The position numbers and the translations under genes were made by a program. This document shows, in pieces, positions 29,472 through 29,915 of a DNA stretch of 64,000 nt; position 1 is the stretch's first letter; every line of letters begins with the position of its first letter. The DNA lies in assembly GCA_035478715.1 (NCBI GenBank), contig DATIJK010000041.1:2550-66549 (forward strand), in the 5' to 3' direction. This DNA comes from Candidatus Saccharimonadales bacterium (lineage in GTDB: Bacteria > Patescibacteriota > Saccharimonadia > Saccharimonadales > UBA4665). The notes beneath the pieces are model-generated. The model had not been told where the DNA came from. It did no database searches and saw only the letters and a list, made by a program, of their open reading frames with translations.

Positions 29472-29548
29472 GGGCGCTTAGCTCAGTTGGCTAGAGCACC
29501 TCGTTTACACCGAGGGGGTCGGGGGTTCGAGCCCCTCAGCGCCCACCA
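29472..29548 (+). tRNA. tRNA-Val (anticodon TAC), CCA encoded
   Basis: Acceptor GGGCGCT/AGCGCCC, D-arm GCTC-AGTTGGCTA-GAGC, anticodon stem CCTCG/CGAGG with loop TTTACAC, T-arm GGGGG-TTCGAGC-CCCTC. Confidence 0.9.
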
Positions 29549-29556
29549 CTTAAAAT

Positions 29557-29578
29557 CCCCACTTCGTGTGGGGTTTTT
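29557..29578 (+). terminator. Intrinsic terminator after tRNA-Val
   Basis: CCCCAC-TTCGT-GTGGGG followed by TTTTT. Confidence 0.7.
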
Positions 29579-29590
29579 AAGTGGTTGTTG

Positions 29591-29710
29591 CCCGGGTTCG
29601 AACTCACGACCACCGGGGTCGGGGTGAGACCCGCCAGTGGCGGGTCGCAAGGCAATCTTCCGGAGCAAGCTTGCTTGCTGCCGTGAAGTTGCGAGCCTGC
29701 CGGAGGCAGG
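29591..29710. ncRNA. GC-rich multi-hairpin segment of unknown identity (candidate structured RNA or relic)
   Basis: About 67% GC by my count in an otherwise moderate-GC region. Perfect hairpins: GACCCGCC-AGT-GGCGGGTC (29628-29646), GCAAGC-TT-GCTTGC (29665-29678, nested in GGCA/TGCC and GCAA/TTGC helices) and CCTGCC-GGA-GGCAGG (29696-29710). Confidence 0.3.
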
Positions 29711-29732
29711 TCGAGCCCCTCAGCGCCCACCA
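29711..29732 (+). repeat. Exact 22-nt copy of the tRNA-Val 3' end (TCGAGCCCCTCAGCGCCCACCA)
   Basis: Identical to 29527-29548. No matching 5' acceptor strand or D/anticodon arms upstream, so it is a fragment and not a second tRNA. Confidence 0.9.
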
Positions 29733-29840
29733 TTCGACTCGCTTTGCTCGCTCATGGTAAACAACGAGTAAGAAAGGCGAGTTTTTGATTACTGCGTTAG
29801 TATTATGTGTGTCGAATGACCTTGAGCTTGTCGAAGGGCC
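29733..29840 (+). repeat. CCA-abutting element, copy A (about 108 nt)
   Basis: Starts right after CCA. Shares with copy B (55658-55776) the motifs TCGA(C/T)TCG, C(G/A)CTCATGGTAAAC, GACC(T/C)TGAGC and GTCGAAGGGCC. Its termini can pair (TTCGAC/GTCGAA; CTCATGGT/ACCTTGAG). Confidence 0.55.
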
Positions 29841-29915
29841 CTAAACAATCCCTACTTTGTGTGGGTTCTCACAATCAAAAGTAAATAACGATAATTCGGA
29901 TGGTACAATCACTGT

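Follow-up and report, generated by a model that had tools for sequence, protein, structure and literature searches.

A gene-free, four-helix sequence family in the hairpin loops of dead tRNA copies in Saccharimonadales: a candidate non-autonomous mobile insert

What is the GC-rich, densely hairpinned segment that separates two tRNA-Val 3' ends in the genome of a Candidatus Saccharimonadales bacterium? The segment (29591-29710) lies in a 64,000-nucleotide stretch of contig DATIJK010000041.1 (assembly GCA_035478715.1), which we call the window and to whose + strand our coordinates refer. A preliminary description had drawn attention to the segment, and we confirm the observation itself; the interpretation that accompanied it, a structured RNA joined to a tRNA-like 3' end, is partly supported. 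The 120 nt have a GC content of 67.5% (about 67% had been estimated), compared with 44.6% in the flanking ~1 kb, and they do stand between two tRNA-Val 3' ends, exact 22-nt copies of which are found on either side. The antisense open reading frames, dismissed earlier as artefacts, are indeed irrelevant to the segment. The part at 29625-29710 is a copy of a gene-free Saccharimonadales family of ~86-90 nt, which we read, with a probability of roughly 0.55, as a non-autonomous mobile insertion targeting hairpin loops.

The locus starts with an intact tRNA-Val(UAC) gene with encoded CCA at 29472..29548 on the + strand, called by ARAGORN and scored at 66.5 bits by the Rfam tRNA model. Two parts of this gene recur. 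Segment a (29515-29525, +) comprises the variable loop, the T-stem's 5' strand and T54; segment b (29527-29548, +) runs from T55 to the CCA. Directly after the gene comes a terminator hairpin, H (29549..29585, +), an inverted repeat (I1) of 94% complementarity. Its two 18-nt arms, 29545-29562 and 29568-29585, reach back so that the ACCA of the tRNA pairs with TGGT. The core stem, CCCCAC/GTGGGG, precedes a TTTTT run and is scored on either strand as an intrinsic terminator, with a terminator-like site mapped to 29557-29573. The sequence that follows, TTGTTGCCCGGGTTCGAACTCACGACCACC (29586..29614, +), repeats the T-arm and acceptor 3' strand of the tRNA in inverted and degenerate form, seen as a minus-strand self-match of 74% and in the minimum free energy structure. 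In the fold this 5' arm pairs through GGGTTCGA with TCGAGCCC at 29711-29718 and through CTCAC..GACC with GGTC..GTGAG. The palindrome of the arm also surfaces in a spurious Rfam alignment to MIR8622.

Downstream of the arm, the 3' third of the tRNA is repeated in two pieces. A second exact copy of GGGGTCGGGG, the variable loop and T-stem 5' strand, occupies 29615..29624 (+; direct repeat D4) and is identical at 10/10 positions to 29515-29524. The conserved core comes next (29625..29710, +), and behind it, at 29711..29732 (+), stands a displaced duplicate of the tRNA-Val 3' end from T55 to CCA: the 22-nt sequence TCGAGCCCCTCAGCGCCCACCA is present exactly both here and at 29527-29548 (direct repeat D1, 22/22, spacing 184). 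This bears out the earlier claim that the segment runs into the T-arm and acceptor 3' half of a tRNA with a CCA end. The first base after this CCA opens a separate repeat family outside the core (29733..29840, +; TTCGACTCGCTTTGCTCGCTCATGG ... GTCGAATGACCTTGAGCTTGTCGAAGGGCC), which recurs after CCA at no fewer than eight other sites in the genome, mostly at intact tRNA genes and also at dead 3'-end copies. Here it stands between the dead tRNA copy and H' (AATCCCTACTTTGTGTGGG, 29845..29875, +), in which the terminator hairpin recurs in diverged form (direct repeat D2; 29554-29572 and 29847-29865, 89%).

The order at the locus is therefore a-b-terminator, degenerate inverted T-arm, a-core-b, post-CCA module and second terminator copy. 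Repeat analysis finds the 3' third of tRNA-Val and the terminator twice, and the presence of H' implies that the duplication spanned a, b and H together. The core sits exactly between a and b, so that the T-loop it occupies belongs to a dead, partial copy of the 3' part of tRNA-Val(UAC); the insertion point falls between G53/T54 and T55. No gene lies within or beside the 184-nt block, and the 162 nt between the repeats hold no open reading frame with a family match; the neighbouring genes encode a SpoU methylase, a His-rich protein and an aminotransferase. No promoter-like site was found between the tRNA and the core.

The conserved feature is smaller than the segment first outlined. Of 29591-29710, only the stretch from 29625 onwards belongs to the conserved core, the remainder being the inverted T-arm copy (29586-29614) and the second GGGGTCGGGG (29615-29624). 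The core scores 115.4 bits (E 8e-23) with a covariance model that we call R1, and it forms three hairpins. P1 (29625-29649, UG-A-GACCCGCC / GGCGGGUC-G-CA) includes the 8-bp helix recognised previously, in which GACCCGCC at 29628 pairs with GGCGGGTC at 29639, and has a conserved base, UGAGA/UCGCA, with an A-G opposition. A linker AGG leads to P2 (29652-29692, GCAAUCUUCC...GAAGUUGC, 17 bp), a long hairpin whose base (GCAAUCUUC/GAAGUUGC) is conserved and whose tip varies. The hairpin originally drawn as GCAAGC-TT-GCTTGC exists at 29665-29678, but that drawing would leave a 2-nt loop and we have corrected it; the real tip is GCAAG-CUUG-CUUGC on top of the 17-bp helix. After a linker GAG, the short P3 (29696-29710, CCUGCC-GGA-GGCAGG) contains the 6-bp helix already proposed, with CCTGCC at 29696 pairing with GGCAGG at 29705. 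A closing helix, P0, is built from the two strands of the interrupted T-stem, the GGGG of the copy at 29615-29624 and the CCCC of the copy at 29711-29732, so that the overall fold is a four-way junction. The interval 29585-29735 folds at -77 kcal/mol (z = -3.56), and 0 of 200 shuffled sequences fold as well.

Comparison with related genomes supports this fold. A BLAST search of 60 relatives returned homologues of 29618-29722 at 72-78% identity, several per genome and each beside tRNA genes. The RNAalifold consensus of a 17-copy alignment has 35 pairs, 22 of which show compensatory changes. For a pairing test we gathered 48 copies with R1: standard pairs fill 96.1% of the cells, and 31 of the 35 pairs have changed on both sides. 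None of 500 shuffles reaches this level and slid controls pair at 29-45%, a very large margin even for an alignment that was fitted to R1 itself. The homologue search and covariation check proposed at the outset thus find the helices kept through compensatory changes. P0 pairs as GC in 45-46 of the 48 homologues. A G.U pair in P3 is found in 37 of the 48 sequences, and 169 of 182 copies fold better as the + strand than as the - strand, which together indicate that the structure belongs to the tRNA-sense strand, whether as RNA or as single-stranded DNA. Diverged, old copies within single genomes (G009, G000) still keep the fold, and this could equally mean selection for a host function.

Of the idea of a structured RNA with a tRNA-like 3' end, the conserved multi-helix fold on the tRNA strand stands, while the 3' end proves to be part of a partial duplicate of tRNA-Val. 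Nor is such an end a fixed trait, since about one third of the tRNA-linked copies follow a 5' partial copy and then carry only ~8 nt of T-loop and T-stem. The fold was said to match no recognisable RNA class, and an Rfam 15 scan agrees: at gathering thresholds only the tRNA itself passes in the window, and at E<=10 nothing covers 29620-29710, spurious matches from the tRNA/terminator palindrome reaching as far as 29618. On the homologous loci Rfam matched the tRNA alone, and full-text literature searches returned no description of the core family.

R1 is patchily distributed. It is present in 30 of 151 genomes of the window's family, at 1-25 copies each. Sampling the phylum more widely gave a single positive among 150 other genomes, and it belongs to the same order. 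Of 120 matching contigs, almost all are labelled as Candidatus Saccharibacteria or Saccharimonadales; a few are attributed to Parcubacteria or Woesebacteria, and isolated odd bins occur as well. The family is essentially confined to Saccharimonadales, a lineage of the CPR. The window genome itself has two copies, the second lying in the same layout behind tRNA-Lys(CUU) on another contig (C48).

We then compared the insertion anatomy of 130-182 instances of the core. Among neighbouring tRNAs, which represent 31 different anticodon types, 90 of 93 share the orientation of the core. On the 5' side of the core the partial tRNA copy breaks off at tRNA position 52-54, and on the 3' side it restarts at 55-56, the restart being seen in 130 other instances; minor stop sites fall at positions 9-16, in the D-loop, and at 37, in the anticodon loop. 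Cores occur in dead copies of more than 20 tRNA species, in the large majority of cases in the T-loop and also in D-loops and anticodon loops (L060-L063). One is nested within the P2/P3 junction of another core (L066), and others stand away from tRNAs in a T-arm-like hairpin of a different repeat. Throughout, the core lies within the loop of a host hairpin, the stem of which becomes the fourth, closing helix.

Two arrangements prevail. In layout A, which includes the window (51 of 130), an intact tRNA is followed by a terminator hairpin, an inverted T-arm and a-core-b. Layout B (30 of 130) opens with a 5' partial copy; the core comes next, then ~8 nt of T-loop/T-stem, and a TTCGAACC-like piece and TATAAT-like hexamers lead to the intact tRNA. 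Elsewhere, 35 instances include an inverted partial tRNA copy, which in 18 of them lies immediately upstream of the core, and the window's 5' arm is similar to the arm of a copy at a tRNA-Lys locus in genome G106. At several loci the identity of the copies extends 10-12 nt past the CCA or upstream of +1, and in the window it includes the terminator, which identifies the duplications as DNA events that did not start from mature tRNA. A retro-origin of the duplicated ends from mature tRNA was rejected on this ground, the window genome also having no reverse transcriptase. The layout-A scaffold is shared by seven tRNA genes of the window genome, and five of them hold other, unrelated structured inserts (at the tRNA-Arg, Met, Lys-UUU/Phe and Val-CAC loci), which suggests that the scaffold is a general property of the site and not of the core and speaks against the mobile-insert reading.

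An insert placed precisely within a tRNA loop, with matching halves of the T-stem on either side, calls to mind the non-canonical introns of archaeal tRNAs, and the locus could be read as an intron or a split half of a functional second tRNA-Val. The missing 5' two-thirds of the tRNA upstream of the core refutes this for the locus. Elsewhere, excising the core in silico yields a tRNA call in 6 of 130 cases and no convincing stand-alone gene: near five of the six stands an intact tRNA, which in four cases is of the same species, and the remaining one, with no intact neighbour, is an odd call with a stop anticodon. An intact copy of the same tRNA adjoins the dead one, and neither a group I nor any other intron model matches. 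As removal of the core never restores a stand-alone tRNA, we regard an intron as practically out of the question.

The main rival to a mobile insert is an RNA like the tRNA-linked repeats (TLRs) of E. coli. [quoted passage not shown] The architecture of the locus agrees with that of E. coli TLRs (PMC8144298), the 22-nt repeat, the terminator H and its second copy H' all being present. The strong strand-specific covariation retained in old, diverged copies points the same way, as do the seven tRNA genes of the window genome with one scaffold and differing structured inserts.

A TLR-like RNA is nevertheless hard to reconcile with several features of the family. Layout-B copies lie upstream of the intact tRNA and have no tRNA 3' end, and cores also occupy D-loops, anticodon loops and one another. 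In 28 of 35 layout-A copies a strong terminator-type hairpin separates the core from its tRNA, and in the window no promoter-like site lies between the two. In a crude windowed test the helix that joins the 5' arm to b does not favour the + strand (29 versus 36), the similarity of cores is independent of the host locus, and there is no sequence similarity to E. coli, a blastn search against 5,426 genomes of that species returning no core match. On balance we consider a functional RNA of this type rather unlikely.

The relationships among cores bear directly on mobility. A tree of 84 core-only nt requires 89 changes of host-tRNA label, against a mean of 90.6 for shuffled labels, and shows no clustering by host tRNA; because 84 nt carry little phylogenetic signal, we also counted pairs by identity. 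All 9 of 9 pairs that are 90-95% identical stand at different tRNA species, some of them in opposite layouts, and so do 78 of 80 pairs at 85-90%. The closest relative of a core is typically found at a different tRNA in another genome. Vertical inheritance by locus was considered and finds no support in the tree or the pair identities, within the weak signal of 84 nt.

The window provides an example of this pattern. Its core is 91.6% identical to the one behind tRNA-Lys(CUU) of G106, which belongs to another genus, with the next best match at 79%, and the two share the otherwise variable P2 tip. In other respects the G106 tRNA-Lys locus is the counterpart of the tRNA-Lys locus of the window genome, down to the same small secondary insert in the acceptor strand, and the core at the window genome's own tRNA-Lys locus differs from that of G106. 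With the Lys core of G106 resembling the Val core of the window and the Lys core of the window genome being different, cores are evidently exchanged between loci. At two further loci (L014, L043) the T-stem halves around the core pair with each other and differ from the T-stem of the neighbouring tRNA, a mismatch indicating that a-core-b can travel as a unit.

Evidence from outside tRNA loci comes from genome G139, with 25 matches to R1. About 12 of the 20 loci fetched share, in unrelated contexts, a 230-nt composite unit that is nearly identical from copy to copy; within this unit the core lies in a T-arm-like hairpin, GGGAGG / CCCTCC. Coreless paralogous hairpins in the same genome have the loops TGTGAGC and GCGAGC, and comparing these empty sites with the filled units places the insertion of the core directly after the 5' strand of the stem. 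The orientation of the copies relative to flanking open reading frames (11 versus 12, from crude calls) shows no bias. At tRNA loci, no clean pair of filled and empty sites was found in close relatives, genus-level relatives being ~70% identical. In the same genus, the tRNA-Val locus of G002 has a terminator and a T-arm-like piece and no core, genomes of this genus being too diverged for comparison, and the syntenic tRNA-Arg loci of G110 and G169 are ~70% identical with another gene intervening, which gives no empty-site comparison. Two exact-pattern scans of metagenomes for an empty site found nothing.

The core has neither terminal inverted repeats, its ends being UGAGA... and ...GGCAGG, nor a short flanking duplication. 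Terminal inverted repeats and target-site duplication are not expected of IS200/IS605-type elements. The family is short, gene-free, multi-copy and patchy, with variable copy number, as MITE- or REP-like elements are.

The exact direct repeat from T-loop to CCA could also be the work of an integrase. On this view, recombination by a trans-acting tyrosine integrase between the T-loop of tRNA-Val and an attP with the tRNA 3' end would have left a remnant or miniature element in which the core is an arm next to attR. The replacement 3' end with its terminator on the attL side suits this reading, as do the duplications that at times exceed the ends of the tRNA and indicate DNA-level events. T-loop crossover sites are reportedly a known class of integrase target, as Williams is said to have described in 2002. 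Set against this, no open reading frame lies between or beside the repeats, the only PF00589 protein (tyrosine recombinase) of the window genome is encoded on another contig (C1), and the core is absent from phage, plasmid and IMG/VR viral-contig collections. Moreover, attR should have the T-stem 5' strand and the 3' segment contiguous, and here the core intervenes. A single attP cannot account for a core that accompanies more than 20 tRNA species and occurs in three loops, in both layouts and in non-tRNA hairpins. We therefore hold an att remnant to be improbable.

No transposase could be tied to the core. At the level of genomes, Y1_Tnp proteins are encoded in 16 of 30 element-positive and 17 of 121 element-negative genomes, and in 5 of the 5 genomes with 8 or more copies. 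The associated Y1 subtype is a RAYT-like protein of 205 aa at a conserved site next to recA, flanked by REP palindromes of its own. No core was detected within 1.5 kb of the RAYT-like Y1 genes, even with filters off, and as these genes are not flanked by cores the genome-level association may reflect only shared ancestry. On these grounds we keep Y1/RAYT as no more than a lead to the mobilising enzyme, the sole one. The window genome has no Y1 transposase, and a Pfam search of it detected two small GIY-YIG genes, at tRNA-Trp and tRNA-Gly and not at R1 cores.

The reading we prefer, a non-autonomous mobile insert, would work as follows. As one discrete unit, the core would be placed by insertion or copying into single-stranded loops of hairpins in the sense strand of tRNA-gene DNA; such sites would fit a chemistry that acts on single-stranded DNA. 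The agent could be an enzyme supplied in trans, for which an HUH/Y1 transposase is the one candidate that has a statistical link. Alternatively, template switching or gene conversion could act on the near-universal T-arm sequence that flanks the core. This second route would require no dedicated enzyme and would also produce the direct-inverted-direct arrangement. The duplication of a, b and the terminator, together with the inverted T-arm, may be a rearrangement that supplied or accompanied the redundant copy. That insertions are seen only in redundant partial copies is probably because tRNA genes are single-copy and essential in genomes of ~1 Mb. As the window genome encodes neither a Y1 transposase nor a reverse transcriptase and its two copies are dissimilar, both copies are probably old and immobile. 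The constant presence of a terminator hairpin and an inverted T-arm is a feature that the mobile-insert model alone does not explain.

A bolder interpretation, which we advance only tentatively, would make the core a new kind of mobile element that homes into DNA or RNA hairpin loops, above all the tRNA T-arm, or else would place it, along with the unrelated inserts that share its scaffold, in a new class of CPR small RNAs that carry a tRNA tag. A hairpin-homing element would use the stem of its target as the closing helix of its four-way junction, with no need of a gene, inverted ends or target duplication. It might spread through an undescribed enzyme activity specific for single strands, or, with no dedicated enzyme, through template switching on the conserved T-arm.

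Either outcome would matter beyond this locus. Saccharibacteria have genomes of ~1 Mb with little spare DNA, yet they carry up to 25 copies of the core and several sister families at tRNA genes. If the core is mobile DNA, a gene-free element can colonise essential tRNA genes without killing them, and an unknown insertion mechanism aimed at hairpin loops is implied. If it is an RNA, the still unexplained tRNA-linked repeats of E. coli would be extended to a distant phylum with a conserved structure that can be tested. Dead tRNA fragments and their inserts also confuse the annotation of tRNAs and non-coding RNAs in CPR genomes, and a covariance model would clean this up.

The family can be set beside several known systems, each of which it resembles in part. 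In E. coli, TLRs lie behind a tRNA or 5S gene, and their final 18-19 nt are identical to the 3' end of that gene (PMC8144298; Egan & Landy 1978, Stenum et al. 2021). [quoted passage not shown] The window element is likewise non-coding, lies behind a tRNA and ends, 184 nt downstream, in a 22/22 repeat of the tRNA 3' end at CCA; like the rrn-operon TLRs, it lies between two predicted terminators, H and H', and like TLRs in general the family has several copies per genome. Unlike TLRs, it has no sequence similarity to E. coli, its repeated tRNA end reaches into the T-loop and is interrupted by a conserved four-helix core, and it is also found upstream of tRNA genes, in D- and anticodon loops, nested and away from tRNAs. 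The terminal 3'-end repeat by which TLRs are recognised is present in the window element and absent from layout-B members.

Integrase-driven genomic islands and prophages, and their integrase-less derivatives (CIMEs, tycheposon satellites), leave partial tRNA-gene duplications as attL and attR; they share with the window a direct repeat of the tRNA 3' end that begins in the T-loop and an intact gene preserved by a replacement 3' end. Unlike in these elements, the whole block here is 184 nt long and geneless, the core lies inside the T-arm of the dead copy, and one core family serves many tRNA species and three loops. The conserved inserts found at several positions in the loops of structured-RNA genes, such as the transposed tRNA introns of Thermoproteales and the intervening sequences in hairpin loops of bacterial 23S rRNA, offer another parallel. 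Those inserts interrupt a working gene and are removed from the RNA, whereas the core is found only in dead partial copies beside an intact gene.

REP/REPIN sequences with their RAYTs, and the hairpin MITEs derived from IS200/IS605 (PATEs), are also short, geneless, hairpin-built, strand-specific and variable in copy number. Like them, the core needs no target-site duplication and would be mobilised in trans by a Y1 (HUH) enzyme on single-stranded DNA, and like REP/REPIN it is associated at the genome level with a RAYT-like Y1 gene. It differs in three ways: the RAYT-like genes have other palindromes at their flanks, the core is a four-way junction with a closing stem borrowed from its target, and what it targets is the loop of a hairpin instead of a short sequence word.

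Five further tRNA genes in the genome that contains the window (G000), namely Arg-GCG, Met-CAU, Lys-UUU, Val-CAC and Phe-GAA, share the window layout, in which the tRNA is followed by a terminator, a structured insert of ~100-120 nt and a copy of the tRNA 3' end (C14:8094-8358, C19:8421-8675, C29:55517-55773, C50:36530-36780 and C50:44792-45039). The covariance model of the three-hairpin core (R1) did not match the inserts at these five loci, which belong to other families. The Lys-UUU and Phe inserts form a single family, and the Val-CAC insert opens with a hairpin resembling P1 of the core.

Two small GIY-YIG open frames in G000 lie between an intact tRNA gene and a partial copy. One of 107 codons (C85:20870-21280) has tRNA-Trp on one side and a copy of tRNA-Trp positions 1-37 on the other, and one of 125 codons (C52:9570-10085) is similarly placed between tRNA-Gly-UCC and a copy of the tRNA-Gly 3' end.

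A ~108-nt repeat family distinct from the core starts directly 3' of the CCA at many tRNA genes, beginning TTCGACTCGCTTYGCTCGCTCATGGTAAAC and ending GCGARKCGAATGACCCTGAGCTTGTCGAAGGGCC, with termini partly complementary to each other. Its window copy (29733-29840) lies between the dead tRNA-Val 3' end and the second terminator copy, and others occur on G000 contigs C1, C29, C50, C52 and C61. A different repeat of ~110 nt, GAGGAAAACCGTAGCCCACAAGTCGAAATTTTGCC..GGCAAAACGAAACAGGGGCGTACGG, is found upstream of dead 5' tRNA copies (loci L054 and L063; contigs C2/C3 of the related genome G110, which carries at least six copies). At tRNA-Lys(CUU), a 22-25-nt mini-insert, CCGGCCGKCCGCAGGACAGCC, flanked by short acceptor-stem duplications, occurs twice: immediately 5' of the gene and, in the dead copy, within the 3' strand of the acceptor stem (G000 C48:4360-4740, locus L038). 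The mini-insert position is likewise occupied in another genus (G106, locus L043).

A composite repeat of 230 nt occurs in the related genomes G139 and G029 (loci L208-L225, L052 and L053). Its leader, GAGCGNAGCGAACGAGGGCGTAAGCCCGAGC, is followed by TTTAGGGGGAGGGA, then by a hairpin of 12 bp that has TTCGAA on either side, and finally by the core within a GGGAGG/CCCTCC hairpin. The G139 genome has 25 matches to the core model, and the loci fetched from it include ~12 near-identical copies of the unit. Paralogues that lack the core are present at L224:327-481 and within L220.

A conserved RAYT-like Y1 (HUH) gene of 205 aa, a candidate mobilizing enzyme, lies upstream of recA (loci L078-L087; G139, G009, G170, G029, G166, G169, G106 and G116). 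Of 151 genomes surveyed in the family, 24 have this gene. Both of its flanks carry a 15-21-nt palindrome, ..AGGNCNGNCCT.., whose sequence varies by genome.
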